This document shows, piece by piece, positions 640-45,576 of a stretch of 64,000 nucleotides of DNA. Source of the stretch: Candidatus Latescibacterota bacterium. Lineage in GTDB: Bacteria; Latescibacterota; UBA2968; GCA-2709665. The translations under genes and the position numbers were made by a program. The stretch spans positions 4,992,001 through 5,056,000 of the forward strand of contig OZ252100.1 of NCBI GenBank assembly GCA_965248435.1. The letters are read 5' to 3'. Under the pieces are notes generated by a model. The model ran no database searches and was not told the DNA's origin. It was given only the letters and a program-made list of their open reading frames with translations. Numbering within the stretch: the first letter of the stretch is position 1; each line of letters opens with the position of its first letter.

Positions 640-876
640 ATGCCTCCGGCGGCCTACTTTTCTTGTCACGCCACAAGAAAAGTAGGCAAAAGAAGGGCGC
701 CCCTCAAACGCCGGGGAGGCTCGGCCGCGGCACCTCACCTTCAGCGGAAAGGACGGTGGCGGCAATCAGGGCGGGACTCCTGCCCCGCCTGACGCCCACT
801 ATGGGACTGGCCCAGAGGGCCTAACCGCGTGGGAGGTGAAAGAACGAGGTTGCATCGGAGTCGCACACCGCGGCCC
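640..876 (+). repeat. Structured dispersed repeat, copy 1 (internal module A)
   Basis: atgcctccggcggc...acttttcttg-loop-caagaaaagt hairpin...ggccgcggcacctcac...gcatcggagtcgcacaccgcggccc; recurs 11 times in the window. Confidence 0.9.
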
Positions 877-916
877 TGATGACCTTTAGCGATCCATTTT
901 GCGAGTTTGGACGGCG

Positions 917-1032
917 GGCCCTGACCCTGCCTCGCTTCGCTCGGCATCCCTCTCCCGTAAATGGGAGAGGGAAAAGGCATCGCTCTGACCTCCCCTCTCC
1001 CACGTGTGGGAGAGGGGCCGGGGGTGAGGGCC
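917..1032. repeat. Double-hairpin ccctctccc/gggagaggg repeat (MITE/REP-like); further copies at ~3692-3856, ~7271-7394 and inverted at ~48280-48395
   Basis: gccctcaccc...gggtgagggc inverted ends enclosing two ccctctccc-N-gggagaggg hairpins. Confidence 0.85.
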
Positions 1033-1058
1033 TGAAGCGATATTCAATATCCAGTCAA

Positions 1059-1892
1059 TTACCCATCAATAAACAGTGGAGATGATGATCCAGGCAGGAT
1101 ATCCGCCTTCTGAGCCCGGGACATCAGATCCGCGATCGCGGCTTCGCCGTCAGGGCCATAGTCCTCCGTGTAGGCGTTGACGTAGAGTTCGATATACTCT
1201 CGCACGACCTGCTCGTCCATTTCCTGCGCGTGCTGCAGAATGTAATCCAGGACCGCGTCCGGGTTCGCCTTCGCGTAGGCGATGCTGTCTTTCAGGGCCT
1301 GGTCGGCTCGCTCGATCGCTTCCGGCCCCAGGCTTCTGCGCGCGAGGATGCCGCCCAGGGGGATCGGATGGCCCGTCGTCTGTTCCCACCACGCGCCCAG
1401 GTCGATGACCTGACGGAGTCCGTATTTCGGATAGGTGAAGCGGCCCTCGTGGATGATGACGCCGGCGTCGACGTCACCGCTGGAGACGGCCGACATGATT
1501 TTGTCGAACGGGAGGATCGTCAGGTCGCTCGACCCGGGCTGGAAGAGGCGGAGCAGGAGCGCGGCGGTGGTGAGCTTGCCGGGGATGGCGATGCGCTTCC
1601 CGTCCAGGTCGTCCGATCTCTGCCCTTCAGGCGCGACAACGAGCGGTCCGCAGCCCCGCCCGAGTGCCCCGCCCGCGTGGAGCAGGCAGTAGGTCTCCCT
1701 GAGATGGCCGAAGGCGTGGAAGGAGATTTTCGTCAGGTCCAGACGTCCTTCCATCGCCATGCCGTTCAGGGTCTCGATGTCCTCCAGGACCTCCTTGACC
1801 TGAGGCGCGCCGTCCAGTTTGCCGTGGACGAGCCCGTAGAAGATGAAGGTGTCGTTCGGGCAGGGGGAGTATCCGAGAGATAAGGATGACAT
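1059..1892 (-). CDS. mqnD: 1,4-dihydroxy-6-naphthoate synthase (futalosine menaquinone pathway)
   Basis: N-terminal LGYSPCPNDTFIFY, GALGRGCGPL, IIHEGRFTY and PIPLGGI motifs; adjacent to mqnB. Confidence 0.93.
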   Translation of the reverse strand: MSSLSLGYSPCPNDTFIFYGLVHGKLDGAPQVKEVLEDIETLNGMAMEGRLDLTKISFHAFGHLRETYCLLHAGGALGRGCGPLVVAPEGQRSDDLDGKRIAIPGKLTTAALLLRLFQPGSSDLTILPFDKIMSAVSSGDVDAGVIIHEGRFTYPKYGLRQVIDLGAWWEQTTGHPIPLGGILARRSLGPEAIERADQALKDSIAYAKANPDAVLDYILQHAQEMDEQVVREYIELYVNAYTEDYGPDGEAAIADLMSRAQKADILPGSSSPLFIDG

Positions 1893-1898
1893 GGCGAG

Positions 1899-2639
1899 CT
1901 AGAGATCGATCTGCTTGATGAGCGTAAGCGCGGCCTCCTGCGCTCGCTTCGCCGCGAGCGGCAGGTCCCAGGCCTCGCGATCCCGGTCTTCGACCGGGTT
2001 GCTGATGCCGCGAACCTCGAGGAAGGGCGTCTCGTAGCGCGCGCAGACGTGCGCGGCGGCGGCGCCCTCCATGTTTTCGCAGATGGCGCCGAAGCGTTCG
2101 GCGAGCTCGCGTCCCCTCAGCTCCGTACCCGTACACTGCTGGACCGTGACGAACGGCCCCTTGCAGAAAAATGGCGGGATGCCACGCCACGACCGGCCTC
2201 GAATCAGGGCTTCGGCACGCGCGACTCGAGCTGAGTCGAGCGGAAAGGTGTTGAAGTGGTCGCGATCATCCTCGAGCAGGGGGATGCCGATCGCCTCCGC
2301 CGACTCCCAGCCGTCCGCAGTTTCTATGCCGAGTTCCCCGTAGTTCTCCTCCGTCGCCACCGCGATATCCCCGATCAACAGGTTGGACCCCGGGTAGGCG
2401 CCCCCGACGCCGACCTGGAGGACGAGCACGTGCGGCGTGGTCTCCAGGGCCCCGGTCAAGACCTGCGCGGTGTTGACGAGACCGATGCCGGTCTCGACGA
2501 GCTTGACGTCCCGCCCGCCGATCCGTCCCGAGAGACAATCGCGACGCGCAACGGTCGAGGTTTCCTTCTTCTTGAGGGCATCCTTCAGGAGGTCGATTTC
2601 GAGCGGTGTGGCTGACAGGACGAGGATCGGTTCTGACAT
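1899..2639 (-). CDS. mqnB: Futalosine hydrolase (PNP/MTAN family)
   Basis: TGIGLVN, GVGGAY, ENMEGAAAAHVC, EVRGISN motifs; directly upstream of mqnD. Confidence 0.88.
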   Translation of the reverse strand: MSEPILVLSATPLEIDLLKDALKKKETSTVARRDCLSGRIGGRDVKLVETGIGLVNTAQVLTGALETTPHVLVLQVGVGGAYPGSNLLIGDIAVATEENYGELGIETADGWESAEAIGIPLLEDDRDHFNTFPLDSARVARAEALIRGRSWRGIPPFFCKGPFVTVQQCTGTELRGRELAERFGAICENMEGAAAAHVCARYETPFLEVRGISNPVEDRDREAWDLPLAAKRAQEAALTLIKQIDL

Positions 2640-2642
2640 GGG

Positions 2643-3671
2643 CTACCAGGTCGGCGCGATCGCGATGTCGGATTCGCTGCCCAGTTTCTCGAGGCTGCGA
2701 AGGATCCCATCGGGCATCGGGATACCGTCGCGAATGTGCGTATCACGCTTGATCCACTCAGGCTCTCCGGGGAGATAGATCCGGTCCACGCCCTTCGCTC
2801 GCCTGGTGTTTCGGAGCACCTGGATCTTTTCGTCGACCTCGGCCTTGAATGTGTCCAGGTCAACGAAGGTGGCGATGTCCAGGGCGAGGAAGAAGAGGCC
2901 GCCGCGCTCCGGGTCCTGCTGGCCGGCGCTCGTGAGGATGGAGGCGATGCAGGTGGTGACGACGGCGAGGCCGGAGCCCTTCGCGCCCCCGAACGGGAGG
3001 ACAAAGGCGGCCTCGTTCGGGTCGTCGGTCTGCTCGCCGTCCTTCGTGAGGCCCCAGTCGCACGGGATCTTTTCGCCCTTCATCCGGGCGACGACGATCT
3101 TCTGGAAGGCGACGGCGCCGCAGGCCATGTCCAGGACGATCGGACGTTCCTTTCCGGCCGGGATAGCGTAGGCGAGGGGATTGTTTCCGAGCGTCGCCTC
3201 GGAGGCGCCGAAGACCGCCAGGTTGCCCTGCACGCGCCTGCTGCTGGTCGAGAATCCGATCATGTCGGCCTCTGCGGCCATCATGGCATAGTAGCCGGCC
3301 GCGCCGAAATGGTTGGCGTTCCGAATCAGCGCGATCCCCACGCCGGTCTGCCGGGCCTTTTCGATCGCCTGCTCCATCGCGAAGTGGGAGACGGCGTGGC
3401 CCAGTCCGTTGCCGGCGTCGAGGTGCAGGTAGGCGGGGCCTTCTTTGATCACGGTCCGGTTCGGCTTCGGATTGAGCTGCCCTTCCTTCATGCGTTCCCG
3501 GTAGCGCTCTAGCATGCGGATGCCGTGGGTCTGGACGCCGCGGAGGTCGGCCTCCACGAGGATCTGGGCGGTGAGGTCGGCGTCTTGGTCCGTGAATCCC
3601 CAGGCGCGGAGGAGGGCGGATCCAAAGGCGCGTAAATTGTCGGCTGATACATTGTTTGTATTGCTTGACAT
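2643..3671 (-). CDS. Ldh_2 family oxidoreductase (malate/L-sulfolactate/ureidoglycolate dehydrogenase-like)
   Basis: ADLRGVQTHG, NANHFGAAGYY, LGNNPLA, LDMA, GGAKGSGL, IYLPGE motifs. Confidence 0.9.
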   Translation of the reverse strand: MSSNTNNVSADNLRAFGSALLRAWGFTDQDADLTAQILVEADLRGVQTHGIRMLERYRERMKEGQLNPKPNRTVIKEGPAYLHLDAGNGLGHAVSHFAMEQAIEKARQTGVGIALIRNANHFGAAGYYAMMAAEADMIGFSTSSRRVQGNLAVFGASEATLGNNPLAYAIPAGKERPIVLDMACGAVAFQKIVVARMKGEKIPCDWGLTKDGEQTDDPNEAAFVLPFGGAKGSGLAVVTTCIASILTSAGQQDPERGGLFFLALDIATFVDLDTFKAEVDEKIQVLRNTRRAKGVDRIYLPGEPEWIKRDTHIRDGIPMPDGILRSLEKLGSESDIAIAPTW

Positions 3672-3993
3672 CTTGCTGTCCTAATCGCTAGGGGCCCTCA
3701 CCCTGCCTCGCTTCGCTCGGCATCCCTCTCCCATAAATGGGAGAGGGAAAAAACATCGTTTTGACCTCCCCTCTCCTGCTTGCGGGTGAGAGTAGATGCT
3801 GAGAGCAACGTCACCCAAGTCGTGAAACGGGGGAGCGGGGCCGGGGGTGAGGGCCCGAACGACGAACCTGTCGTGTCCTAAAGGACACGACGCACGATCC
3901 ACGAACGACGGCCTTAGCCTCCGGCGGGGGAGACGCCCCACCGGGGCGTCTCTACGCTCAGGCGCCTCCGTGATCCAGCTTTTCGCGAACTGC

Positions 3994-4217
3994 ATGCCTC
4001 CGGCGGCCTACTTTTCTTGTCTCGCCACAAGAAAAGTAGGCAAAAGAAGGGCGCCGCTCAGTCGCCGCGGGGGCTTTGGCCGCGGCACCTCACCCTCAGT
4101 GGGACAAACGCACACGGCAGGAAGGCCAAATCCTCACCACGCGCTCACGATCTCTGAGGAACCAACCCGCCGGGAGGAGAAATGGGCTGGTTGCATCGGA
4201 GTCGCACACCGCGGCCC
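3994..4217 (+). repeat. Structured dispersed repeat, copy 2 (module B)
   Basis: Same termini and hairpins as copy 1, different internal segment. Confidence 0.9.
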
Positions 4218-4357
4218 TGATGGGTTTGCGCGATCTCATTCGCGGGTTTTAATGAAGTAAGAGTCGACCTGGTCCCCTCCTAGGAGGGGTGCCCCGAAGG
4301 CCCCCTGCATGTTTTAAGCAGGGCGGGGTGGGTTATATCACGAACGCCAGGGTTTTG

Positions 4358-4420
4358 CGGTACCCGGTACCCGTGTTTTGGTTTCCCGGTACCCGTGTTT
4401 CGATTCCCCGGTACCCGGTT
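4358..4420. repeat. GGTACCC heptamer short tandem repeat (cggtacccggtacccgtgttttggtttcccggtaccc); also ~10651-10746, ~33993-34030, ~34712-34736, ~37441-37494, ~45672-45705, ~54994-55032
   Basis: Visible tandem GGTACCC units with shared flanking sequence in intergenic spaces. Confidence 0.85.
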
Positions 4421-5374
4421 TCACACCTGCAGCGCCGCGATGGCGGCGACACCTACGATGTCATCCACCGAGGCGCCGCGAGAGAGGTCGTTGATCGGCT
4501 TGTTGAAGCCCTGCATGATCGGGCCGATGGCCTCTGCTCCAGCAAGGTACTGCGTCAGCTTGTAGGCGATGTTGCCCGAGTCGAGGTCGGGGAAGATGAG
4601 GACGTTCGCCTCTCCGCCGAGCGGAGAGTCCGGACACTTCGCTTCTGCGACGGCGGGGGAGAGGGCGGCGTCGACCTGCAGTTCGCCATCGACGATACAG
4701 TCGGGCAGTCTTTCGCTCGCAAGGCGGGCGGCTTCGCGGACCTTGTCGACCCGCTCGTGCACGGCGCTGCCGTGCGTGGAGAAGGAGAGCAGCGCGACTT
4801 TCGGTTGGATCTCGAGCAGGGTGCGAGCGTTTCGAGCTGTTGCCACGGCGATCTGGGACAGCTGTTCCGCGGAGGGATCGATCGCGACGGCTGCGTCGGC
4901 GTAAACGATGACGCGCTCCGGCGGGCCGGGAAGGACCATGATGAAGAAGCTGGAGGGCTGCGTGACGCCCGGTTCAAGCCCGATCGCGAGGACGCCCGCG
5001 GAGATGACCCCGGCGGTCGGTTTCGTGGCGCCGGCGATCACGGCGTCGGCGTCGCCCTCGGCGACCATCATCGCGCCGAAGAACAGCGGGCGGCGCACGA
5101 GCCGCTCCGCGACTCTTACCGTGACGTCTCTGCGCGCCGCGTAGGCCTCGCAGTAGCCCGCGAACGATGCGGCGTCAGCCGGATCGACGACCCCGATCCC
5201 CCCTGTTAAATTCTCGCGGGGGCAAGCTTCCGAGCCGATCAGGATCGGGTGGGCGATCCCCTCCGCTACGAGCCGGACGGCCGCCTTGACGACCCGTTCA
5301 TCCTCCGCTTCTGGGAACACGACGCGCTTCGAAGCCTGCTTCGCCCGCTCGACGAATCGATCGATCAATCCCAT
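4421..5374 (-). CDS. pta: Phosphate acetyltransferase
   Basis: [51 protein letters not shown] motifs. Confidence 0.92.
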
Positions 5375-5438
5375 TCCCGTACGGCAGAGAGCCGCACCGA
5401 TTCGGCGCGGCTCGTTCTACCTTTCCTCCCTCGCAGGC

Positions 5439-6830
5439 TCAGGTTGAGACGCGCCCTTCCTTACAGCGGGCGAACTGTTCGGGCAGATGGATCTTGACCT
5501 GTGCTTCCAGCTCCTCGTCGGTGATCGCGCTGAGACGACCGTCGACCTCGTACTGATCCATAACCCACCGCGCCACCTTGTGCACCTTGATCTTGCTGAG
5601 CCGCTCTTTTCCCTTGAGGCCCAGGAATTCGTTGACCCAGTGGGCGATGCCGTCCGTGCCCGATTTGTCGGTGATGGCGACGCGCGGTGGGCGGCCGAAC
5701 AGGGCGGTCGTGTCGAAGATGTTGTAGATCCGTTCGTCGGAGCGGAGTCCGCCGGCGTGTATCCCGGCCCGCGTGGTGTTGAAGTCGCGTCCGACGAAGG
5801 GGTAGTTGGTCGGGATGTCGACACCGATCGATCGCATGTAGTCGGCCATCTCCTGGATCATCTGCGTGTCGATCCCGCAGAGGTCGCCCTTCAGGCCGAT
5901 GTACTCGATCAGCGCGCCCTCGAGCGGCGGGTTGCCGGTCCGCTCGCCGAACCCGAACAGCGTCGTGTTGACGGCGTTGCAACCGTAGAGCCAGGCTGTG
6001 GATCCGTTGGCGTGGACCTTGTGGAAGTCGTTGTGACCGTGCCACTCCAGGCAGTCGTAAGGCACGCCCGCGTCGTGCGTCATGCGGTAGATGAGCTTGG
6101 GAATCGACCGCGGCAGGCAGGCGCCGGGGGTGGCGAGCGCGAAGCCCATGGTGTCGCAGAGACGGATTTTGGCGTGGAGCTCGGGTGGGACCTGTTCGGA
6201 CCGGCGCATGAGCTCGGTGACGAACGGGAGGACGAAACCCGGGATGTCGGCGCGGGTGACGTCCTCGAGGTGACATCGCGGCCGGATCCCGGCTTCCCAC
6301 GCAGCGTCGACGACTTCGAGGTAGTCGTCGAAGGCCTGCTTCCGGTCCTTCTTGAGCTTCATGAAGATGTGGTAGTCGGAGCTGGAAGTGAGCATCCCGG
6401 TCTCTTTGACGCCGGCTTCTTTGACGAGGCGGAAGTCGCCCTTGTCGGCGCGGATCCAGGAGGTGATCTGGGGGTAGGGATGGCCCAGGTCCTGACACTG
6501 TTCCAAAGCCCTTCGGTCGTTCTTGGTGTAGAGGAAGAACTCGACCTGGCGGAGGACGCCGTTGGGTCCGCCCAGCTTCGCCATCATGTCGAAGAGGGTG
6601 ACCTGCTGTTCGACGGTGTAGGGCGGGCGGGCCTGCTGGCCGTCGCGGAAGGTGGTGTCCGTGATGACGAGGTCACGAGCGACGGCTTCGCGGGGATCGA
6701 ATTTGACGAGCTCTCCGTCGATCTCTTCGTAGAGCGGTGCCTCGAACTCGATCTTTGGCGGCAGACTGTAGTCGAACTGGTCCTCGAGCAGGTTGGGCTG
6801 ATCGACTTCGACTAGTTTCCAATCCTTCAT
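5439..6830 (-). CDS. Re-citrate synthase (DRE-TIM / HMGL-like acyltransferase)
   Basis: ITDTTFRDGQQ, EFFLY, SDYHIF, RCHLEDVTRAD, EWHGHNDF, GERTGN, TRAGIHA match the clostridial Re-citrate synthase pattern as recalled. Confidence 0.8.
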   Translation of the reverse strand: MKDWKLVEVDQPNLLEDQFDYSLPPKIEFEAPLYEEIDGELVKFDPREAVARDLVITDTTFRDGQQARPPYTVEQQVTLFDMMAKLGGPNGVLRQVEFFLYTKNDRRALEQCQDLGHPYPQITSWIRADKGDFRLVKEAGVKETGMLTSSSDYHIFMKLKKDRKQAFDDYLEVVDAAWEAGIRPRCHLEDVTRADIPGFVLPFVTELMRRSEQVPPELHAKIRLCDTMGFALATPGACLPRSIPKLIYRMTHDAGVPYDCLEWHGHNDFHKVHANGSTAWLYGCNAVNTTLFGFGERTGNPPLEGALIEYIGLKGDLCGIDTQMIQEMADYMRSIGVDIPTNYPFVGRDFNTTRAGIHAGGLRSDERIYNIFDTTALFGRPPRVAITDKSGTDGIAHWVNEFLGLKGKERLSKIKVHKVARWVMDQYEVDGRLSAITDEELEAQVKIHLPEQFARCKEGRVST

Positions 6831-6871
6831 GGTGCTACTCCGCTATACGAGAAATGAAGTGAGACACTTTG

Positions 6872-6912
6872 CACACCTCGATACGCCCGCTTCGCGGGCT
6901 ACTCGGTGCAGG
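6872..6912. repeat. Small palindromic repeat (cacctcgatacgcccgcttcgcgggctactcggtg); inverted relative at ~11784-11821
   Basis: Hairpin gcccgc-ttc-gcgggc; reverse-complement similarity to 11784-11821. Confidence 0.6.
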
Positions 6913-6938
6913 CGGGCTGATGGTGACGCACATAGGAT

Positions 6939-7181
6939 TCAGTTGACGAATTTGGCGATGTAGTCGATGGCGCCGCTGACGGTCTGAACGGCCATGGCGT
7001 CGTCCTCATCCATTTCGATGTCGAAGGCGTCTTCGAACCCGGCCATGAGTTCGATGGATTGGACCGATTCGGCGCCGAGATCGGTGGTGAAGACGTGGCT
7101 GTCCTGGATCTGGCCCGGGTCGATTTTGAGGACCTGGGAAATTACCTCATAGACCTTGTTTTTGATTTCGTTTTGTTCCAT
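6939..7181 (-). CDS. Acyl carrier protein
   Basis: 80 aa acidic protein; DLGAES..EL...ED.FDIE and TV..AIDYI pattern. Confidence 0.88.
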   Translation of the reverse strand: MEQNEIKNKVYEVISQVLKIDPGQIQDSHVFTTDLGAESVQSIELMAGFEDAFDIEMDEDDAMAVQTVSGAIDYIAKFVN

Positions 7182-7417
7182 GGGTGGCCCCTTTTATCGC
7201 GATCTGCGGTTTGGCGAGGGATCAATATAATGAAAAAGGGGGTGATGGAGGAAGTGATTTTCGAGCGCGAGGGCCCTCACCCTGCCTCGCCCCCGAAGGG
7301 GACTCGGCATCCCTCTCCCATAAATGGGAGAGGGAAATTTCTTGCTCTGTCCTCCCCTCTCCCACAGGTGGGAGAGGGGCCGGGGGTGAGGGCCGATCAC
7401 GATCGCCAGAAAACCTC

Positions 7418-7769
7418 GCCTCCGGCGGCCTACTTTTCTTGTCTCGCCACAAGAAAAGTAGGCAAAAGAAAGGCGCCGCTCAAACGCCGCGGGGGCTCCG
7501 GCCGCGGCACCTCACCCTCAGTGGCATAAACAGTCCACGGCAGGAAGGCCAAATCCTCACCACGCGCTCGCGATCACTGAGGAACCAACCCGCTGGGAGG
7601 AGAAATGGGCTGGTTGCATCGGAGTCGCACACCGCGGCCCCGACGGTTTTGAGCGATGACATTGCTTTCGTTCAAACACACGCATTAATGAAACTCTTCC
7701 CCCTTTGGAAAAGGGGGACTGAGGGGGATTTCAAGATGCATCACGCATCGGAGTCGCACACCGCGGCCC
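7418..7769 (+). repeat. Structured dispersed repeat, copy 3 (module B, 7418-7640) plus ~130 bp 3' extension ending in a second terminal motif
   Basis: Extension is near-identical to 34493-34621 and 45447-45576. Confidence 0.9.
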
Positions 7770-7808
7770 TAATGGTTTCAAGCGATCTTCAATCGGAAAA
7801 TATATGTG

Positions 7809-7852
7809 GTAGGAGCCAACTCCAGTTGGCGAACAAGAGAATCGCGATCCAC
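7809..7852 (+). repeat. GTAG-type REP (gtaggagccaactccagttggcga); also ~9745-9790 and ~45133-45156
   Basis: GTAG tetranucleotide followed by hairpin gccaac-N-gttggc (gccagc/gctggc variant at 45133). Confidence 0.75.
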
Positions 7853-7857
7853 CCTCG

Positions 7858-9973: not shown

Positions 9974-10526
9974 ATGCCTCCGGCGGCCCACTTTTCTTGC
10001 TCGCCCAAGAAAAGTGGGTCAAAAGAAAGGCGCCCCTCAGGCGCCGGGGAGGCTCCGGCCGCGGCACCTCACCCTCAGTGGCATAAACAGTCCACGGCAG
10101 GAAGGCCAAATCCTCACCACGCGCTCGCGATCACTGAGGAACCAACCCGCTGGGAGGAGAAATTCTCTCGTTGCATCGGAGTCGCACACCGCGGCCCTGA
10201 TGGTTTCGAGCGATCTTCTTTGTGAGATAGAAAGACGCCAGTCCCCTCCTTGGAGGGGTGCCCCGAAGGGGCGGGGTGGGTCGAATCACGATTTGAGAAA
10301 AACATGCCTCCGGCGGCCCACTTTTCTTGCTCGCCCAAGAAAAGTGGGTCAAAAGAAGGGCTCCCCTCAGTCGCCGCGGGGGCTTTGGCCGCGGCACCTC
10401 GCCCTCAGTGGCATAAACAGTCCACGGCAGGAGGGCCAAATCCTCACCACGCGCTCGCGATCACTGAGAAACCAACCGCTGGGAGGAGAAATGGTCTGGT
10501 TGCATCGGAGTCGCACACCGCGGCCC
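9974..10526 (+). repeat. Structured dispersed repeat, copies 4 (9974-10197) and 5 (10304-10526), part of a 330-bp tandem duplication
   Basis: Direct repeat with period 330 bp including flanking sequence. Confidence 0.9.
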
Positions 10527-10757
10527 TGATGAATTGCAGCGATCTCTTTCGTGAGTTTGAGAGACGCCAGTCCCCTCCCAGGAGGGGTGCTCCGAAGGGG
10601 CGGGGTGGGTTTTACGAACGACGATCGACGGCCTTCCGACTTTCCCGATCCCCGGTACCCGTGTTCTGCTTTCCCGGTACCCGGTCTTTGCGAGCGACGA
10701 ACGACGGTTTTACGGTACCCGGTACCCGTGTTTTGGTTTCCCGGTCATGATACACAA

Positions 10758-10856: not shown

Positions 10857-10911
10857 AGGTTCGGTTGCCGTATTCGTATGTACGCAACCTGTTGACCAGG
10901 AGGAACTCGAA

Positions 10912-15245: not shown

Positions 15246-15267
15246 CCCACTCGTATGGAGGTGCTCC

Positions 15268-16242: not shown

Positions 16243-16265
16243 GAGAAGCTGCCTCCCAACGATCC

Positions 16266-29428: not shown

Positions 29429-29743
29429 ATGCCTCCGGCGTTCCGCCCGTCGGCTCGCTGTCTTCGATCACGAACTCGCCGTTGACCATCACGAAGTCGA
29501 TGCCGACGGGCCTCTGAACGTTGCTACCAGTACCAACTTTTCTTGTCTCGCCACAAGAAAAGTAGACAAAAGAAGGGCGCCGCTCAGTCGCCGCGGGGCT
29601 CGGGCCGCGGCACCTCACCCTCAGTGGCATAAACAGTCCACGGCAGGAAGGCCAAATCCTCACCAAGCGCTCGCGATCACTGAGGAACCAACCCGCTGGG
29701 AGGAGAAATGGTCTGGTTGCATCGGAGTCGCACACCGCGGCCC
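29429..29743 (+). repeat. Structured dispersed repeat, copy 6 (module B) with a captured D-aminoacylase 3' fragment at 29441-29532
   Basis: Insert translates on the minus strand as PVGIDFVMVNGEFVIEDSEPTGGTP. Confidence 0.88.
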
Positions 29744-31957: not shown

Positions 31958-32194
31958 ATGCCTCCGGCGGCCTACTTTTCTTGTCTCGCCACAAGAAAAG
32001 TAGGCAAAAGAAAGGCGCCGCTCAAACGCCGCGGGGGCTCGGCCGCGGCACCTCACCCTCAGTGGAAAGGACGGTGGCGGCAATCAGGGCGGGACTCCTG
32101 CCCCGCCTGACGCCCACTATGGGACCGGACCAGAGGGCCTAACCGTGTGGGAGGTGAAAGAACGAGGTTGCATCGGAGTCGCACACCGCGGCCC
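31958..32194 (+). repeat. Structured dispersed repeat, copy 7 (module A)
   Basis: Near-identical to copy 1. Confidence 0.9.
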
Positions 32195-34143: not shown

Positions 34144-34621
34144 ATGCCTTCGGCGACCTACCCTTCGGCAAGCTCAGGGCATGCTTTTCTTGTCTCGCCA
34201 CAAGAAAAGGGCTACCGCAACCGCCACCCTTGGGCACAGCGCGGCTGTGCCCCTACACTCCAAGATTTCGCCGTAGGGGCGCGGTCGTGCCGCGCCCGAA
34301 GGCAAAAGAAAGGCGCCCCTCAAACGCCGGGGAGGCTCGGCCGCGGCACCTCACCCTCAGTGGAATAGACGGTCACGGCAATCAGGGCAGGACTCCTGCA
34401 CCGCCTGACGCCCACTATGGGACCGGCCCAGAGGGCCTAACCGCGTGGGAGGTGAAAGAACGAGGTTGCATCGGAGTCGCACACCGCGGCCCTGACGGTT
34501 TTGAGCGATGACATTGCTTTCGTTCAAACGCACGCATTAATGAAACTCTTCCCCCTTTGGAAAAGGGGGACTGAGGGGGATTTCAAGATGCATCACGCAT
34601 CGGAGTCGCACACCGCGGCCC
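34144..34621 (+). repeat. Structured dispersed repeat, copy 8 (module A, 34144-34492) with nested insertions and the 3' extension
   Basis: Both arms of the first hairpin are interrupted; extension matches 7641-7769. Confidence 0.85.
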
Positions 34622-35890: not shown

Positions 35891-35972
35891 AAACGTATCT
35901 CGTATCTCGGGGTAATGTGTCTCAGTCTGTTATTCCGCGAAAATCAAATCCCCCCTGCCCCCCTTTTACAAA

Positions 35973-37294
35973 GGTTCATCACCGATTTCCGGGGAAGGCG
36001 TGGCGGATTCTAAGAAAGAAATAATTATCATCCCTGAAGCCATATGCCATCCGCTTGATGACCTTGATTTTGTTGTTAATTCCCTCAATCAGGCTTGTCC
36101 CGATGGGATAGTCACAGTGAGCTAGGATTCCTGGCATATACGTCTTCAGATTGCGTGCGAATTTCTTGAGTGGCTCGATCTTGCTGTAGATGGCGCGTCG
36201 ATACCACTGATTCCAGAATCTGTTGGCCGCAGCTCTGGATCGATAAGACCAGAGATGATTGAGATCCTCTTTGAGGAGGTATACCGTGTAGAGGCGTTTG
36301 TTTGCAGAAAGCAATTCTCTTAGCGACACTCTGTCTTCTTTGCTCGTGACATTTGCTTTGCTGCGCAGGAGCAACCACCGTTGGTTCTGAGTCACTTTGC
36401 GATCGGGTCGGCCACCGCGCACCCGACCCAGTTCGTCGATGCGTACTCGCTCGACGACGTCGCGGTTGTACTTGGCTTTAACGTGATACAGGTCATAGAT
36501 GATGTCCACATCCGGACAATGGGATCGCACCTCCTCTTCGTAGGCACCGTTCATGTCCATCGCCACGGCCTCAAGTTGCTTGCAGCCTTCTTCTCCAAGG
36601 AGGTGGAAAAACGGGCGGATGTCCTCTCGACTTCGGCCGCGACCCACCCATAGGACACGCTTGGTCTCCATGTCAACAATCACTGTGGCGTAGCGATGGC
36701 CCTTTTGGATCGCAAATTCGTCCATGCCGATCACCGTGACCCTGGCAAAATCCGGCGGTTCCAGCTCTTGCTGGAGATGGGTCTTGTGAATGCGCTTCAC
36801 GGTATTCCAGCTCATCCCATAGTGCTGTGCCACGTGCTGGATGGGCAGGACTTCGCACAATCGAACAACACTTTCAGCCAGGCGTTGAGTGACCCGTGAA
36901 TACCGATCCAGCCAGTCAATCTGCTCCGTCCGGCAGCCACATCGGGGACATAGGACGCGCCGGGAGTGCACGATCAGCCTGGTTCGAGACCCCCAGATCG
37001 GCAAATCCTGAGCAAATCGCACTGCCCAATCATGAACCCGGTACGCCTTCTTCCCGCAACCACCACACCGAGGAAGGCGGCCTGTCTTGGGACGTAACTC
37101 GACTCCAACAACGTCTGCTTCCTGACGTTGAATGCCAACTACCACAAACCCTTGCCACCTACCCAGTAAGGATATACTTTGCACCTGAGACAACGCGCTC
37201 TCCTTTCTACCTTCAGGTTTATAGAGGATACTCTGAAGATAGGTCGGATGCCGTTGTCTCGTCTATTTTCTACCCCAACATTTGACGAAGAACC
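35973..37294 (-). mobile_element. ISL3 family insertion sequence, copy 1 (1322 bp) with 8-bp target duplication TTTACAAA
   Basis: Ends ggttcatcaccga / tttgacgaagaacc; TTTACAAA at 35965-35972 and 37295-37302. Confidence 0.93.
35979..37193 (-). CDS. ISL3 family transposase
   Basis: Zn finger CGGC/CPRC, GMDEFA, AMDM, DLYH, EGINNKIKVIKRMAYGFR. Confidence 0.95.
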   Translation of the reverse strand: MSQVQSISLLGRWQGFVVVGIQRQEADVVGVELRPKTGRLPRCGGCGKKAYRVHDWAVRFAQDLPIWGSRTRLIVHSRRVLCPRCGCRTEQIDWLDRYSRVTQRLAESVVRLCEVLPIQHVAQHYGMSWNTVKRIHKTHLQQELEPPDFARVTVIGMDEFAIQKGHRYATVIVDMETKRVLWVGRGRSREDIRPFFHLLGEEGCKQLEAVAMDMNGAYEEEVRSHCPDVDIIYDLYHVKAKYNRDVVERVRIDELGRVRGGRPDRKVTQNQRWLLLRSKANVTSKEDRVSLRELLSANKRLYTVYLLKEDLNHLWSYRSRAAANRFWNQWYRRAIYSKIEPLKKFARNLKTYMPGILAHCDYPIGTSLIEGINNKIKVIKRMAYGFRDDNYFFLRIRHAFPGNR

Positions 37295-37496
37295 TTTACA
37301 AAGGGGGGCAGGTTGCTCACGCAGGCGGAGACGCCCCATCGGGGCGTCTCTACGGTGATAGATCGTCTCCGTGCCCTCCTGTTCTTTCTGCTTTTCTCCG
37401 CCTTTTTCCGTGATCCAGCTTTTTTGGATCCAGGGTTTTGCGGTACCCGGTACCCGTGTTTTGGTTTCCCGGTACCCGGTACCCGGTACCCGGTTC

Positions 37497-39413
37497 TCAC
37501 CACGTATTTATCCGATGCCCGTTCCCGTGAAACCAGATCGTGTCGACAACGACGCCGAGGCCGACGCCGGCCAGGAACCCGATGAACATGCCGAGGAAGA
37601 ACGGCGTGGCCTTCCGGTAGTACTCCGGGCCGCCGAGCTTGATCAGGACGGTCCGGATCAGCCAGACGAGGAAGAACGGACAGATGCTGCTCCGCATGGC
37701 CCCCGAGGCGGCGATCGTGAACCCGATCGGATGGATCGGGAAGGTGGGGAGCCGGGTGCGCAGGAAGAAGAGCAGCGCGGTGAACGCGCCGCCCAGCCCC
37801 AGAAACGTCACGCGGTCCCAGTCGGTCCCGAAGTTCTGCTGTAGGCGGCGGCCCGTGAGCGGCCAGATTCCGCCGATGCCGTCGTAGGCGCCCCCGCCGA
37901 AGTTGTAGCTCCCGATCGTGGTGTAACCCTGGTGCAGCGTGAACGTGATCACGACCGCCGCGCCGATCGACGCCCCCGCGAGGATGGCGGGGACGAGGGC
38001 GCGCCGGTAGCGGACCGCCATGGCGGTGCCCAGCCGGGGGATGTGGGCGAGCGCGGTGATGCCGAACGTCTTCGCGTCGCAGAAGAAGGCGTAGGTCAGC
38101 CCGCCCAGGGCGACCGCGCTCGCCGTGCCCAACCCGGTGGTCCCGAACAGGTGCCAGGTGAACGACTGCGCGGTGATCGGTCCGCGGAGATAGATCAGCC
38201 CGCTCTCGACGATGATGCGCGCCAGACCGAGGTAGAGGACGAGGGTGCCGAACCCGAAGGCGAGGAGCGGCCCGAGCGCCATCCCGGCCCGGTTCAGCCA
38301 GAGGCCGGCGTAGAGCACGCAGCCGAGGAACAGCCAGACCGCGGTCCGGTAGGAGAGGAGTTCGCCGGAATCGTCGATCTCGCCCCGCCTCGTGAACGCC
38401 TTCCGAAAGACCGCCCCGAGGTGCGCCCGCGCGACCCAGAGGCCCCAGCCAACGAAAACGATCATCCCGCCGAAGGACTGCCATCCGATCGCGGCGTCGA
38501 ACGAACACCACGGGTCCGGCCCACCGATGTCGAACCCGGTCCGGTTCTGGAAGCCCGCCTGCAGCATGGCCAGGAAGTGAAACAACCAGATGCTGACCAG
38601 GACCTCCGAATTGCAGAAGTAGGCGAAGGCCATGGTCATCGGGTGGATCTTGAGCACGAACCCGGGAAACCCCTTGAACGTCGGAATGCCCTCGCCTCGC
38701 AGGAAGAATCGGGGCAGGTCGGGGACGGAGACGAAGAACCAGGAGAGGATGATCCAGACGATCGCGCCCAGGACGGACCAGAAACCGGCCTGGAAGAGCC
38801 GGGATCGAAGCAGCGTCCGGAGCGTGCCCTGCGAGCCGGAGACGCCGGTGAGCGCCAGCAGGCCGGTCGCGATCGGAAAGGCGAGCCGCTCGTGATCCAT
38901 CCACTGCTTGCGGAGGATGATGGCGATGCAGACGTTCGCGAGCAAGATCGCGGCCAGGAAGCCGCTCCACCAGAAGAACGGGACGATCCAGGGCCGCCAC
39001 GGGAGGTCGGCCCCCTCGGGCAGACTCTCGTAGAACCCCACGATGGCCGGTTTGTCGGAGACGATCGTCCAGTCCGGGATGTGGGGGAGCAGGAACTCCT
39101 CCCACTGGCTCTCCGCGGTCGCGAAGTAGAGCGGGTGCGTGATGACGGGGAGGAAGTAATCGGAGAGCCACTCGCCCTGTATGTTGCCGGCGACCATCCC
39201 GATGCAGCAGACGGTGAGGAGCTCGGAGGGTGAAAGGCCGCGGCGACCGAGCAGCAGGTTGAGACCGAGCAGGCAGATGAACGGGACGAGAAAGGCGACG
39301 GAGATGTGCGCGAAGTCGGCGCGTGACGAACGGACGACCAGGTTGGCGTAGGGGATCCAGAGGTTGGCCAGGGCGGCGATGGCGAGGCCGAGGAGGAGGG
39401 AACGCTTCGTCAT
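37497..39413 (-). CDS. Polytopic membrane protein, DUF6785/DUF6784-like, paralogue of 29901-31841
   Basis: Collinear with the other copy (QGEWLSDY, DPWCSF..AIGWQSFGG, FFCDAKTFG, GNGH.INTW). Confidence 0.72.
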   Translation of the reverse strand: MTKRSLLLGLAIAALANLWIPYANLVVRSSRADFAHISVAFLVPFICLLGLNLLLGRRGLSPSELLTVCCIGMVAGNIQGEWLSDYFLPVITHPLYFATAESQWEEFLLPHIPDWTIVSDKPAIVGFYESLPEGADLPWRPWIVPFFWWSGFLAAILLANVCIAIILRKQWMDHERLAFPIATGLLALTGVSGSQGTLRTLLRSRLFQAGFWSVLGAIVWIILSWFFVSVPDLPRFFLRGEGIPTFKGFPGFVLKIHPMTMAFAYFCNSEVLVSIWLFHFLAMLQAGFQNRTGFDIGGPDPWCSFDAAIGWQSFGGMIVFVGWGLWVARAHLGAVFRKAFTRRGEIDDSGELLSYRTAVWLFLGCVLYAGLWLNRAGMALGPLLAFGFGTLVLYLGLARIIVESGLIYLRGPITAQSFTWHLFGTTGLGTASAVALGGLTYAFFCDAKTFGITALAHIPRLGTAMAVRYRRALVPAILAGASIGAAVVITFTLHQGYTTIGSYNFGGGAYDGIGGIWPLTGRRLQQNFGTDWDRVTFLGLGGAFTALLFFLRTRLPTFPIHPIGFTIAASGAMRSSICPFFLVWLIRTVLIKLGGPEYYRKATPFFLGMFIGFLAGVGLGVVVDTIWFHGNGHRINTW

Positions 39414-39636: not shown

Positions 39637-39872
39637 ATGCCTCCGGCAGCCAACTTTTCTTGCTCGCCCAAGAAAAGTTGGACAAAAGAAGGGCTCCCCT
39701 CAAGCGCCGGGGATGCTCGGGCCGCGGCACCTCACCCTCAGTGGAAAGGACGGTGGCGGCAATCAGGGCGGGACTCCTGCACCGTCTGACGCCCACTATG
39801 GGACCGGCCCAGAGGGCCCAACCCGCGGGAGGTGAAAGAACGAGGTTGCATTGGAGTCGCACACCGCGGCCC
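39637..39872 (+). repeat. Structured dispersed repeat, copy 9 (module A)
   Basis: Same termini; hairpin variant ccaac/gttgg. Confidence 0.9.
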
Positions 39873-41062: not shown

Positions 41063-42384
41063 GGTTCTTCGTCAAATGTTGGGGTAGAAAATAGACGAGA
41101 CAACGGCATCCGACCTATCTTCAGAGTATCCTCTATAAACCTGAAGGTAGAAAGGAGAGCGCGTTGTCTCAGGTGCAAAGTATATCCTTACTGGGTAGGT
41201 GGCAAGGGTTTGTGGTAGTTGGCATTCAACGTCAGGAAGCAGACGTTGTTGGAGTCGAGTTACGTCCCAAGACAGGCCGCCTTCCTCGGTGTGGTGGTTG
41301 CGGGAAGAAGGCGTACCGGGTTCATGATTGGGCAGTGCGATTTGCTCAGGATTTGCCGATCTGGGGGTCTCGAACCAGGCTGATCGTGCACTCCCGGCGC
41401 GTCCTATGTCCCCGATGTGGCTGCCGGACGGAGCAGATTGACTGGCTGGATCGGTATTCACGGGTCACTCAACGCCTGGCTGAAAGTGTTGTTCGATTGT
41501 GCGAAGTCCTGCCCATCCAGCACGTGGCACAGCACTATGGGATGAGCTGGAATACCGTGAAGCGCATTCACAAGACCCATCTCCAGCAAGAGCTGGAACC
41601 GCCGGATTTTGCCAGGGTCACGGTGATCGGCATGGACGAATTTGCGATCCAAAAGGGCCATCGCTACGCCACAGTGATTGTTGACATGGAGACCAAGCGT
41701 GTCCTATGGGTGGGTCGCGGCCGAAGTCGAGAGGACATCCGCCCGTTTTTCCACCTCCTTGGAGAAGAAGGCTGCAAGCAACTTGAGGCCGTGGCGATGG
41801 ACATGAACGGTGCCTACGAAGAGGAGGTGCGATCCCATTGTCCGGATGTGGACATCATCTATGACCTGTATCACGTTAAAGCCAAGTACAACCGCGACGT
41901 CGTCGAGCGAGTACGCATCGACGAACTGGGTCGGGTGCGCGGTGGCCGACCCGATCGCAAAGTGACTCAGAACCAACGGTGGTTGCTCCTGCGCAGCAAA
42001 GCAAATGTCACGAGCAAAGAAGACAGAGTGTCGCTAAGAGAATTGCTTTCTGCAAACAAACGCCTCTACACGGTATACCTCCTCAAAGAGGATCTCAATC
42101 ATCTCTGGTCTTATCGATCCAGAGCTGCGGCCAACAGATTCTGGAATCAGTGGTATCGACGCGCCATCTACAGCAAGATCGAGCCACTCAAGAAATTCGC
42201 ACGCAATCTGAAGACGTATATGCCAGGAATCCTAGCTCACTGTGACTATCCCATCGGGACAAGCCTGATTGAGGGAATTAACAACAAAATCAAGGTCATC
42301 AAGCGGATGGCATATGGCTTCAGGGATGATAATTATTTCTTTCTTAGAATCCGCCACGCCTTCCCCGGAAATCGGTGATGAACC
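41063..42384 (+). mobile_element. ISL3 family insertion sequence, copy 2 (1322 bp), inverted relative to copy 1; flanks do not form a matching duplication
   Basis: Same ends and same 404-aa protein; flanks TTCGTAAA (41055-41062) and TTGCTAAA (42385-42392). Confidence 0.93.
41164..42378 (+). CDS. ISL3 family transposase
   Basis: Translation identical to 35979-37193. Confidence 0.95.
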   Translation: MSQVQSISLLGRWQGFVVVGIQRQEADVVGVELRPKTGRLPRCGGCGKKAYRVHDWAVRFAQDLPIWGSRTRLIVHSRRVLCPRCGCRTEQIDWLDRYSRVTQRLAESVVRLCEVLPIQHVAQHYGMSWNTVKRIHKTHLQQELEPPDFARVTVIGMDEFAIQKGHRYATVIVDMETKRVLWVGRGRSREDIRPFFHLLGEEGCKQLEAVAMDMNGAYEEEVRSHCPDVDIIYDLYHVKAKYNRDVVERVRIDELGRVRGGRPDRKVTQNQRWLLLRSKANVTSKEDRVSLRELLSANKRLYTVYLLKEDLNHLWSYRSRAAANRFWNQWYRRAIYSKIEPLKKFARNLKTYMPGILAHCDYPIGTSLIEGINNKIKVIKRMAYGFRDDNYFFLRIRHAFPGNR

Positions 42385-43304: not shown

Positions 43305-43610
43305 TGAAGCTCCTTACAAAAGATGAATGTCGAACCGCAGAATATCGAATGATGAAGGAAAGGCTCGTAAACAGGCGAATCTGTCATCCCGAGGAGCCTT
43401 CAAGTCATTGCATTGATCCGAAAGACTTAGAGCAACCGGCGACGAGGGATCTCAAGAGCTTGTTACTCAGTGAATCTTCTCGTGATGTCACAGCTGCTGC
43501 ATTGCCTGCTGAGATTCCTCGCTGACGCTCGGAATGACAAAATGGAGCGCTGGGTGATCTGCATTTCATTCCCCAATCCCAAATCCGCAATCCGCAATTA
43601 GATGACTTTC

Positions 43611-44582
43611 TTATCTGTCGACGCCTTTTTCCCAGTGCCTGATCAATGGCTTCAGCTGCTCCCAGAACGCCTCCGGGATTTCGACTTCGCCTGCACGGAC
43701 ATTCTCGATCGCCTCTTCCGGCGTCCTGGCGCCGGGGATCGTGGTGGCGACCTGCGGATGCCGTGTGCACCACTGAAGGGCGGCGGCCACCATCGGAATG
43801 CCGTGGTCCTGGCAGAGGCGCTGGATCTGCGTCACCTGCTCCAGGCAGGGCGGGCTGAAGTTTCGGTCCAAGTATTCGGTGCCCGAGGAGGGACCGGTGG
43901 CGAGGAGGCCGCGTTCCAGGGGCGTGGCCGTGACGATGCCGATGTCGTGTTTCTCCGCGGCGGGCAGGACACGGCGGGCGGCGAACTGATCCAGCATGCT
44001 CCACGAGTCGGCCGATACGGCGGCGTCGAACTCGCCGGTTTCGAGGTAATCGGCATTGGTCTCGGGGTCGTTCGAGGCGGAACCGATGAACCGGACGACC
44101 CCTTCGTCCTGAAGCTTCCTGAGCGCAGCGAAGGCGCAGAATTTGCCCAGCATCATGTCCATCGAGAAGCCCATCGCGTCGTGGATGTAAAGGATCTCGA
44201 ATTTCTCGATCCCGAGCCGCTCCTGGCTCTGTTCCACGTCACGTAAAATTGCGTCGTAGGTAAAATCGCGCGCCATGTTGTGGCTCTGCCCGACTTTGGT
44301 CGTCACGGTCACGCCCGCGGCCAGGTCGGGACGCGCCTTGAGCGCCCGGCCGACGATCTCTTCGCTGCGGCCGGCGCCGTAGAACCGCGCGGTGTCGATG
44401 AAGCTGCAGCCCGCCTCGATGGCGGCGTGCACCGCCTTCACCCCGAGCTCGATATCCACCTGACCGGGCTGACCCCCGTACTCGAGCGCGACCAGATTGT
44501 GGTCCGGAATGCCGACATGCGCGGCGCCCATGCCCACGATCGGGACTTCCAGTCCGGTACGGCCCAGGATCTTGGTTTTCAT
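43611..44582 (-). CDS. Aldo/keto reductase
   Basis: Start MKTKILGRTGLEV; IDTARFYG..SEE, TTKVG, IHD, AALQW, IPGART. Confidence 0.88.
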   Translation of the reverse strand: MKTKILGRTGLEVPIVGMGAAHVGIPDHNLVALEYGGQPGQVDIELGVKAVHAAIEAGCSFIDTARFYGAGRSEEIVGRALKARPDLAAGVTVTTKVGQSHNMARDFTYDAILRDVEQSQERLGIEKFEILYIHDAMGFSMDMMLGKFCAFAALRKLQDEGVVRFIGSASNDPETNADYLETGEFDAAVSADSWSMLDQFAARRVLPAAEKHDIGIVTATPLERGLLATGPSSGTEYLDRNFSPPCLEQVTQIQRLCQDHGIPMVAAALQWCTRHPQVATTIPGARTPEEAIENVRAGEVEIPEAFWEQLKPLIRHWEKGVDR

Positions 44583-44703
44583 CTCGATCCCCTTGCTCCT
44601 TGCGCGGTTTTGACGGGGTAAGATAGCACCAGCATTGGGGTGACGCAAGGCCTCAACCGCGGGCGATTGTCCCCACGGGGATGTCTCTGCGGGATACCTC
44701 ACC

Positions 44704-44730
44704 GTAGGGGCAGGCCCCTGTGCCTGCCCG
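44704..44730 (+). repeat. GTAG-type REP (gtaggggcaggcccctgtgcctgcccg)
   Basis: GTAG plus hairpin gggcaggc/gcctgccc. Confidence 0.7.
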
Positions 44731-44817
44731 CATTTCAACGTATTCATTACGCGGACGGGCAACCACGTGTCCCACAGGACACGACCTGAGACGATCCACG
44801 AACGACTGCCTTAACCC

Positions 44818-44988
44818 ATGCCTCCGGCGGCCCGCCCGTCGGCTCGGCGTCTTCGATCACGAACTCGCCATTGATCATCACGAAGTCGATGCCGACGGCT
44901 TCTGAACGTTGCTACCGGTATCCTACTCTCTTGCTCGCCCAAGAAAAGTTGGACAAGAGAAGGGCGCCCTTCAGGCGCCGGGGAGGCT
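44818..44988 (+). repeat. Structured dispersed repeat, copy 10 (5' part only) with the same captured D-aminoacylase fragment (~44832-44921)
   Basis: Insert matches 29441-29532 at the same position in the element. Confidence 0.85.
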
Positions 44989-45221
44989 GACTTTTCCGCG
45001 AACCGTCCCAGTGGCCCTAGAGATGTTTGTGTCCTTGGATCTTTTGTGTTGTCCATAAACGGGAGTGCTTGACGGATAAGCGCGGAAAAGTCCCACCCCA
45101 CCCCACGGGCATCGTGAATGAAATTATATGCGGTAGGAGCCAGCTCCTGCTGGCGAACCTCTGAATGGAGCTTTCATATTCAAGAGGCATATCAAACGAG
45201 GATCACAAGGTTCACAAAACA

Positions 45222-45576
45222 ATGCCTCCGGCTGCCCACTTTTCTTGCTCGCCCAAGAAAAGTGGGTCAAAAGAAAGGCGCCGCTCAGGCGCCGCGGGGG
45301 CTCCGGCCGCGGCGCCTCACCCGCAGTGGCATAAACAGTCCACGGCAGGAAGGCCAAATCCTCACCACGTGCTCGCGATCACTGAGGAACCAACCCGCCG
45401 GGGAGGAGAAATGGGCTGGTTGCATCGGAGTCGCACACCGCGGCCCCCAACGGTTTTGAGCAATGACATTGCTTTCGTTCAAACACACGCATTAATGAAA
45501 CTCTTCCCCCTTTGGAAAAGGGGGACTGAGGGGGATTTCAAGATGCATCACGAAAGGGAGTCGCACACCGCGGCCC
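45222..45576 (+). repeat. Structured dispersed repeat, copy 11 (module B, 45222-45446) plus 3' extension
   Basis: Matches copy 3 including the extension. Confidence 0.9.

Follow-up and report, generated by a model that had tools for sequence, protein, structure and literature searches.

A repeated structured core, probably the conserved interior of composite MITEs, in a Latescibacterota chromosome

We analyzed a 64,000-nt stretch of the chromosome of a Candidatus Latescibacterota bacterium (contig OZ252100.1, positions 4,992,001 to 5,056,000 of the forward strand; hereafter the window, numbered from 1), in which a repeated element of about 230 bp recurs between positions 640 and 45,576. A first-pass annotation of the window had described 11 copies of a non-coding repeat, and both the count and the non-coding, repeated nature of the element are supported here. 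A profile built from eight copies, which we used on the window and on the genome, gave 11 matches in the window, namely eight full copies (starting at 640, 3994, 7418, 9974, 10304, 31958, 39637 and 45222), two with a disruption on the 5' side and one partial copy. The 14-mer of the 5' end, at up to two mismatches, matched the window 12 times against 0.99 expected, on the + strand only; 11 of these matches lie at, or within 2 nt of, the start positions first assigned (the copy at 7418 matches from 7416), and the remaining one, at 54810, was rejected as lying outside the repeat family. The 25-mer of the 3' end, at up to three mismatches, matched 13 times against 0.00 expected, again on the + strand only, and the surplus is due to three lone 3' ends at 7745, 34597 and 45552. 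The copies and lone ends are as follows.

640..876, + strand: full core copy, 237-nt variant
3994..4217, + strand: full core copy, 224-nt variant, used as the reference copy
7416..7640, + strand: full core copy
7745..7769, + strand: lone 3' 25-mer, located 3' of a palindrome-bearing repeat
9974..10197, + strand: full core copy, unit 1 of a 330-bp tandem pair
10304..10526, + strand: full core copy, unit 2 of the 330-bp tandem pair
29429..29743, + strand: 14-mer and about 90 nt resembling a gene fragment, with the core following from profile position 14 (29533-29743)
31958..32194, + strand: full core copy
34144..34492, + strand: core copy with small repeats nested in hairpin H1; profile match from position 45 (34300-34492)
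34597..34621, + strand: lone 3' 25-mer
39637..39872, + strand: full core copy
44818..44988, + strand: partial copy with the 14-mer, an insert resembling a gene fragment, and the 5' module only (44910-44988)
45222..45446, + strand: full core copy
45552..45576, + strand: degenerate lone 3' end with three mismatches

The central module comes in two variants, of 237 nt and 224 nt, which indicates that the element is modular rather than a single fixed unit. In the copy at 34144 a nested insertion splits hairpin 1, and in the copy at 29429 about 90 nt of unrelated sequence directly follow the 14-mer. The roughly 80 nt behind the 14-mer at 29428-29509 and 44817-44898 are 72% like the 3' end of an amidohydrolase gene (7877-7958) and look like gene fragments carried along with the repeat. 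At the tandem pair, a metagenome contig from one run joins 10270 to 10611 with 37 other letters between them, a variant without one of the two units. Among the contigs of two sequencing runs, assemblies break at the repeats and no clean empty site was found. A tRNA scan of the window found none.

On the 5.66-Mb chromosome of this genome (G000), the profile gave 85 matches that merge to 71 loci, 32 of them full length. The fixed ends described in the first-pass annotation did not withstand this wider comparison: in most of 50 compared copies, a further 35 to about 105 nt on the 3' side of ...CCGCGGCCC are also alike, about 20 of these copies reaching ...CCCCAACATTCGGCGAAGAACC, and one subfamily is also alike over about 95 nt upstream of ATGCC, its common upstream sequence starting with GGCTCTTCACCGAAT. 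The upstream end GGCTCTTCACCGAAT and the downstream end CCCCAACATTCGGCGAAGAACC form an inverted repeat. Next to the core, the flanks are kept between copies, and the upstream flanks form several unrelated classes in G000; the flanks as a whole are mosaic, and truncated copies are many. A small open reading frame in the right arm was discarded as a candidate gene, as it is not kept in genus g6, and so was a Shine-Dalgarno sequence with an ATG at the reverse-strand end, where the two lie too close together and the frames that follow are either short or not in register.

The window also contains two copies of an ISL3-family insertion sequence, whose transposase matches DDE_Tnp_ISL3 with an E value of 6.9e-66.

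35973..37294, - strand: ISL3-family insertion sequence with a 404-aa transposase at 35979-37193, ends GGTTCATCACCGATT... and ...ATTTGACGAAGAACC, and an 8-bp duplication TTTACAAA within a CCCCCC/GGGGGG palindrome
41063..42384, + strand: second ISL3 copy with an identical 404-aa transposase

A genome search with a loose pattern for ISL3 ends returned 84 candidate end pairs. Twelve of the 84 enclose a core, ten are ISL3 insertion sequences of 1322-1323 bp, and the remainder look like chance pairs. The 12 core-bearing copies are bounded by GGCTCTTCACCGAAT.../...ATTCGGCGAAGAACC and the insertion sequences by GGTTCATCACCGATT.../...ATTTGACGAAGAACC. The flanking 8-bp duplication matches at all eight positions in five of the 12 core-bearing copies and at seven of eight in another two; for the ten ISL3 copies the numbers are likewise five (8/8) and two (7/8). 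Both kinds of copy have a target in common, a CCCCCC-TTTNNAAA-GGGGGG palindrome. A repeat search confirmed the direct repeats CCTTTACAAAGG, CCTTTGGAAA, TTTCCAAAGG and CCTTTGATAG together with the inverted ends in four copies, and found the palindrome split around the ISL3 insertion sequences of the window. Nine of the 12 copies bounded by terminal inverted repeats (TIRs) measure 386-627 bp, two measure 1486 bp and contain extra DNA, and one of 1082 bp contains two cores. A TIR-bearing example lies at C1:4703475-4703896. Ten of the 12 were compared for orientation, and in all ten the core runs from the end resembling that at the transposase stop to the end resembling that at the transposase start. 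The profile search found no match to the core inside the ISL3 copies.

The ISL3 family is characterized by 8-bp target duplications and GGCTCTT-type ends (ISfinder). A published report (PMC9782665) describes an ISL3 transposon with an 8-bp repeat. Given the inverted ends, the 8-bp duplications and the target held in common with the resident ISL3 element, the TIR-bounded subfamily, with a length of about 420-630 bp, is an ISL3-type miniature inverted-repeat transposable element (MITE), and, as judged from sequence, the ISL3 insertion sequence is its putative autonomous partner, moving the TIR-bearing core copies in trans. The first-pass annotation had reported neither terminal inverted repeats nor target duplications. 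This is correct for the window's own copies, none of which carries ISL3 ends (0/11), and fails for the family, with 12 genomic copies bounded by TIRs and five of them flanked by perfect 8-bp duplications. Its proposal of mobilization in trans holds, in the same way, for one genomic subfamily and not for the copies of the window, and its suggestion of an RNA or single-stranded DNA element is not supported, since inverted ends, an 8-bp duplication and a DDE (ISL3) partner fit a double-stranded MITE. Two further observations concern these ends. Short palindromes of the form CCCCC(C)TTTNNAAAGGGGG(G) are a dispersed repeat in their own right, with many genomic sites, for example at 35954-35972 with 37295-37312 and at 7700-7730, and serve the ISL3 element and its MITEs as insertion target. 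At G000:C1:807708-807893, 186 bp without a core lie between ISL3-type ends and may be a core-less mini-MITE.

G001, a genome from the same genus, has a syntenic counterpart of the gene cluster at 6-9413 of the window, with 77-84% identity. The gaps that hold the copies at 640, 3994 and 7418 measure 637, 777 and 622 nt in G000 versus 60, 163 and 103 nt in G001. The comparison of filled and empty sites suggested in the first-pass annotation thus yields three positions filled in G000 and empty in G001, with boundaries that are not clean; because several nested repeats differ between the sites, no clean insertion boundary of the core can be read from them.

In G022, a genome of the same order, the core has at least 150 matches, and 25 retrieved copies show it within an element of about 480 nt. 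This element ends with TACTCTGTAAATTAA..., some copies having an outer pair GCCATCTGTACCAACTAATTAC, and TA flanks were present in six of the six copies that have both type-1 ends. The type-1 end sequence also flanks a DDE_3 (IS630-family) gene, such genes having been sought with PF13358, in an element of about 1196 bp without the core. The core therefore sits on both ISL3-type and IS630-type ends, as a passenger of MITEs of two unrelated transposase families, and the match of the TIRs to ISL3 elements here and to IS630 elements in G022 argues that the DNA moves as double-stranded MITEs. Compared pairwise, 24 copies in G022 differ by 1.6% over the 5' module, 13% over the 3' domain and 16-27% over the arms; the strands of a long-range helix, a part that the search model leaves uncovered, hardly vary either. 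We consider it likely that the ~230-nt repeat is the conserved inner core of a composite, non-autonomous transposon (MITE) family with a passenger fold.

The predicted fold is best described on the reference copy.

3996..4005, + strand: 5' strand GCCUCCGGCG of the closing helix P1, partner at 4063-4074
4007..4040, + strand: hairpin H1 with a 14-bp stem and the loop CUCGCC at 4021-4026
4041..4053, + strand: A-rich linker CAAAAGAA mirroring the H1 purine strand, then GGCG pairing with the H1 loop
4078..4085, + strand: 5' strand GGCCGCGG of the long-range helix, partner CCGCGGCC at 4209-4216

Related genera have this plan in common. The closing helix P1 (for example GCCUCCGGCG with CGCC..GGRGGC) is followed by H1 of 10-14 bp, the A-rich linker and 4-5 nt that pair with the H1 loop. 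A CUCARAC motif then precedes the long-range helix around a variable domain, an ACGGA/GGAGUC-type motif stands directly before the 3' strand of that helix, and UGAUGG follows. The long-range helix itself differs between genera, being GGCCGCGG in g1, GCACAGCGC in g6 and GCUUUUCCGCG or GAUUUUCCGCG in g2, g3 and g7. The stems named in the first-pass annotation were all found again: hairpin 1 occurs as CCTA/TAGG, CCCA/TGGG and CCAA/TTGG, stem 2 as cccc/gggg and ccgc/gcgg, and the 8-bp helix GGCCGCGG/CCGCGGCC is present. Its statement that stems co-vary between copies is likewise supported by the covariation of the helices.

The pairing of the H1 loop with the sequence downstream constitutes a pseudoknot, and was evaluated in two ways. 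In 68 distinct loop/downstream combinations, taken from 126 pattern matches in public contigs, the longest helix between loop and downstream sequence averages 3.84 nt versus 3.11 +/- 0.08 nt with shuffled partners. A model-based alignment with 132 distinct rows has 95.2% of its pseudoknot cells paired versus 86.7 +/- 0.4, and a covariation score of 0.154 versus 0.053 +/- 0.004, a value that none of 500 shuffles reaches. All four pseudoknot pairs vary on both sides, and slid controls pair at 40-56%. The linker was compared with the mirrored H1 purine strand of its own copy, and the two agree over 7.33 nt versus 5.59 +/- 0.28 (0/2000; 12 distinct strands), with strand/linker pairs such as AAGAAAAG with AAAAGAA, AAAGAAA with AAAGAAA, AAGAGAAA with AAAGAGAA, and AAAAAAGAG with AGAAAAA. 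Such mirroring would be a signature of base triples, and the putative triplex could consist of U.A-U and C+.G-C triples on the reverse strand, or of purine or A-minor contacts on the forward strand. Both features of the class of H-type pseudoknots with a triple helix, a loop that pairs downstream and a third strand that tracks the stem, were thus found in the sequence.

The 5' module was matched in 33 of 41 related genomes, and the full element was found within the genus only. The hairpin-linker pattern occurs at no fewer than 123 loci in public records. Among the matches listed, the isolates are Burkholderiales, including Herbaspirillum, Undibacterium and Variovorax, and the metagenome bins are labelled Gammaproteobacteria, Desulfuromonadales, Nitrospira, Thermodesulfovibrionales, Latescibacterota, Bacteroidota and Oscillospiraceae/Clostridiales. 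The unit conserved in Herbaspirillum measures about 330-350 nt and has a different 3' domain. The exact 3' 25-mer gave no match in a collection of genome contigs. The first-pass annotation could assign the element to no named family, and this agrees with our searches of Rfam: Rfam 15 at the gathering score gave no match in the window, and in a permissive scan (E up to 1) of four loci, including beta-proteobacterial and Oscillospiraceae ones, nothing overlaps the element.

The orientation of the core is uneven in G000. All 27 core loci in the 110 kb of G000:C1:4927183-5037446, whose right part is the window from 1 to 45446, are on the + strand, and the genes among them lie on both strands. With an origin near 2.95-3.08 Mb, the forward strand of the core is the leading strand at 60 of the 71 loci, versus 61% of roughly called genes; the 60 are made up of 27/27 in the 110-kb cluster and 33/44 elsewhere. 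When replichores are drawn from dnaA, a bias is clear, besides G000, only in G002 (20 of the 24 matches listed); it is weak in G022 (about 49 of the 87 listed) and not clear in G001 and G020. With respect to the flanking genes, the element (E) in G000 shows the arrangements <E< at 26 loci, <E> at 18, >E> at 17 and >E< at 10, and at 44 loci of relatives >E> at 13, <E> at 12, <E< at 9 and >E< at 6, four being unassigned; these counts are rough because the gene calls are crude (54% coding). G-U pairs are rare in both directions, with six forward and four reverse in 372 pseudoknot cells and none forward and three reverse in 999 hairpin cells.

From these data we propose the following scheme. TIR-bearing cores would move as double-stranded MITEs with DDE transposases supplied in trans, and the eleven copies of the window, which sit in repeat-crowded intergenic DNA, would either have lost their ISL3 ends or never have had them. 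The core, which is absent from both parent insertion sequences, would be a passenger dispensable for transposition. As a single strand it would fold into P1, the 10-14 bp hairpin with its H-type pseudoknot and mirroring linker, and a second domain closed by the long-range helix. It is quite possible, and we put this forward tentatively, that the core is an uncatalogued cross-phylum structured RNA of about 200 nt, carried as cargo by unrelated MITEs and kept intact by selection on each copy; as part of this same tentative reading it would not be a by-product of transposition but a mobile RNA device with strand symmetry. For the way it acts, our preferred guess, offered with considerable reserve, is a strand-symmetric RNA fold that could form in transcripts from either direction. 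Such a fold would stop read-through or exonucleases and so make the MITEs tolerable or useful between genes.

A number of observations weigh against this scheme. The arrival route of the window's copies, which lack ISL3 ends, is unexplained by it, and the filled and empty sites in G000 and G001 differ by several nested repeats, other families included. Transposition into a palindromic target does not account for the common direction of 27/27 cluster loci. That the 57-nt module diverges so little in G022 comes partly from the picking of the best model matches, and the matches outside Proteobacteria all come from metagenome bins, in which mis-binning is possible. For the pseudoknot and linker statistics, the public loci were pre-selected by the hairpin and linker pattern, which leaves the pseudoknot partner and about 12 second copies as the free tests; moreover, copies that are related cannot count as independent, and the alignment had been fitted to the hairpin. 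The strand signals conflict as well. Minimum free energy is lower on the reverse strand in five of eight examples, and U-G pairs in P1, in three lineages, work on the forward strand only. UNCG/GNRA loops number 22 forward versus 1 reverse in G000, and 34 versus 30 in a cross-phylum set. A terminator-like hairpin on the reverse strand, GGCG..CGCC with UUUCUUUUG, is found in three of the five full copies of 1-11000, a region with 20 terminator-like sites versus 9.6 +/- 3.3 expected, and this hairpin has G-U pairs plus a U-tract. A sigma-70-type scan of 1-11000 and of one G022 copy found no promoter-like site. The first-pass annotation had left the functional strand undecided, and this assessment stands, as wobble, energy and loop signals point both ways.

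The same data bear on what else the core could be. The fold might act in DNA, as a cruciform with an intramolecular triplex formed from supercoiled or transiently single-stranded DNA. Such a structure could offer a site to a structure-specific protein, act as a topological sink or give a replication-linked signal. The pairs are indeed nearly all Watson-Crick with wobble equally rare on both strands, the purine strand and the linker are arranged as an H-DNA-type mirror repeat, no orientation rule relates the element to neighbouring genes, and the leading-strand bias of G000 (60/71) and G002 (20 of the 24 listed) would suit such a role. We nevertheless find a DNA structure somewhat unlikely: a long-range helix around a ~130-nt domain in which unpaired motifs are conserved is typically seen in RNA and seldom in DNA structures, the UNCG loops agree better with RNA, as do the U-G pairs that P1 has in three lineages, and a replichore bias shows up weakly in G022 (about 49 of the 87 listed) and not clearly in G001 and G020. 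That each copy is instead a small-RNA gene with its own forward transcription unit, acting in trans, for example by binding a protein, is unlikely in our view. It is hard to reconcile with 60 to at least 150 seemingly constrained copies per genome, with upstream flanks that fall into several unrelated classes in G000, and with the missing sigma-70-like promoter in 1-11000 and in the G022 copy, even though the multi-domain fold and its unpaired motifs CUCARAC, ACGGA/GGAGUC and UGAUGG are kept across genera, the U-G pairs of P1 are forward-only, sequence upstream of the core is conserved in genus g6, and orientation in G000 and G002 follows replication as it does for strongly transcribed genes.

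We judge it rather improbable that the core has no function at all and is old junk DNA that transposon ends came to enclose, conserved in appearance through recent bursts, gene conversion and biased sampling. In favour of this, the copies of one genome are young and much alike, the best matches were the ones sampled, the flanks are mosaic and many copies are truncated. Its architecture, however, is kept with different helix sequences in at least five genera and its 5' module across several phyla, the two transposon backbones that carry it are unrelated, compensatory as well as triple-wise changes are present, and in G022 parts outside the search model are conserved too. Very improbable indeed is a single-stranded DNA element of the REP/BIME or PATE type moved by an HUH (Y1) enzyme, or a relic omega or bridge RNA of TnpB or IS110. 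What speaks for it is that the window copies have no inverted ends, that the element has hairpins and a replication strand bias, and that the genome holds five Y1 genes and four IS110 genes. Against this, PF07282 (TnpB) has no match in G000, a genome 97.5% complete; the RAYT-like Y1 gene has its own, unrelated GTAG-type repeats; across 41 genomes, Y1 was not detected in five with 8-15 element matches and is present in three without the element; IS110 copies have no sequence in common with the element; and the flanks next to the core are conserved between copies rather than variable, as opposed to what a guide RNA would need. PF00078 (reverse transcriptase) likewise gave no match in G000, at the same completeness, so that the defining gene of a retroelement, whether SINE-like or related to group II introns, was not found.

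Two candidate systems were also considered and set aside. An integron cassette array (attC) was dropped because the genes neighbouring the repeats at C1:4.93-4.99 Mb lie on both strands while the repeats are all on +; IntI was not searched for. A REP/BIME system with a RAYT was rejected, as the RAYT-like gene is flanked by a different, 58-nt repeat and Y1 does not track the element in the 41 genomes. That gene encodes 168 aa with an HVH motif and lies at 1333-1839 of locus L151 (G000:C1:3751447-3754677), with three tandem 58-nt units at 1840-1990. Each unit has a GCAGCC-GGGA-GGCTGC hairpin beside CTAC (GTAG on the other strand), and these units make up a separate REP system in G000.

Several other features of the window were observed. 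A second small repeat, at 916-1032, 3692-3850 and 7265-7395, has its own inverted ends GGGCCCTCACCC ... GGGTGAGGGCC, contains CCTCTCCC/GGGAGAGG hairpins and breaks into the right arm of the 640 copy. Heptamers of the GGTACCC type (GGTACCCGGTACCCG...) form runs beside the repeats in intergenic DNA at 4345-4420, 10660-10745 and 37440-37500. Two large paralogous genes with DUF6785 and DUF6784, at 29901-31994 and 37497-39413, are about 70-76% identical in DNA and 7.6 kb apart, and immediately upstream of each lies a core copy on the other strand. The stretch 12519-27296, with lower third-position GC content, resembles a defence island and encodes a pentapeptide-repeat protein, a caspase/CHAT protein, a DUF5655/NucS-like protein, an SNF2 helicase with a PLD nuclease domain (18330-21035), a DUF1156 methyltransferase-like protein (21345-24512) and GmrSD with HNH (25938-27296).

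The interiors of MITEs are usually taken as irrelevant decay of insertion sequences, and here the interior is the conserved part: within one bacterial order, two unrelated backbones carry one fold, with compensatory and triple-wise changes. Should this fold work in RNA, it would amount to a mobile RNA module of wide distribution, perhaps an orientation-independent block to read-through or nucleases, which could shape operon expression at its landing sites, and it would join a small group of natural candidates, in bacteria, for a long triple helix of RNA. As several culturable isolates of Herbaspirillum and other Burkholderiales carry family members, the question is directly testable.

In the literature we searched on ISL3 elements and MITEs, no description of such an element was found, and searches with the hairpin strings returned unrelated papers only. 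Compared with known systems, the core-bearing copies resemble ISL3 insertion sequences in their GGYTCWTC... ends, their 8-bp duplication and the presence of DDE_Tnp_ISL3 in the same genome, and differ in that the core element has no transposase and the window copies no ISL3 ends. Closer parallels are the MITEs derived from insertion sequences, such as Correia/NEMIS in Neisseria, RUP in Streptococcus and MITEAba12, together with mobile insertion cassettes that carry passenger DNA. Like these, the family is short and non-coding, has ends that match a resident insertion sequence and a duplication of the length typical of that family, and occurs in many intergenic copies, with candidate empty sites in a relative; its interior, however, is not a deleted insertion sequence but a folded module absent from the parent element, and one and the same module is found on ISL3-type ends here and on IS630-type ends in G022. 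With REP/BIME/REPIN elements it has in common a mosaic, intergenic and hairpin-rich character, a frequent position beside other repeats and a possible role at RNA ends, whereas the core greatly exceeds them in length, has several domains and a pseudoknot, lacks a GTAG-palindrome unit and shows no link to Y1. The triple-helix pseudoknots of telomerase RNA, SAM-II, preQ1-II and ENE/MALAT1-type 3' ends, finally, share with the core the pairing of a loop with downstream sequence and a third strand that tracks the stem, the triplex of the core being predicted; unlike them, the core has no ligand, gene association or defined RNA end, and occurs on mobile DNA, where a genome holds tens to hundreds of copies.

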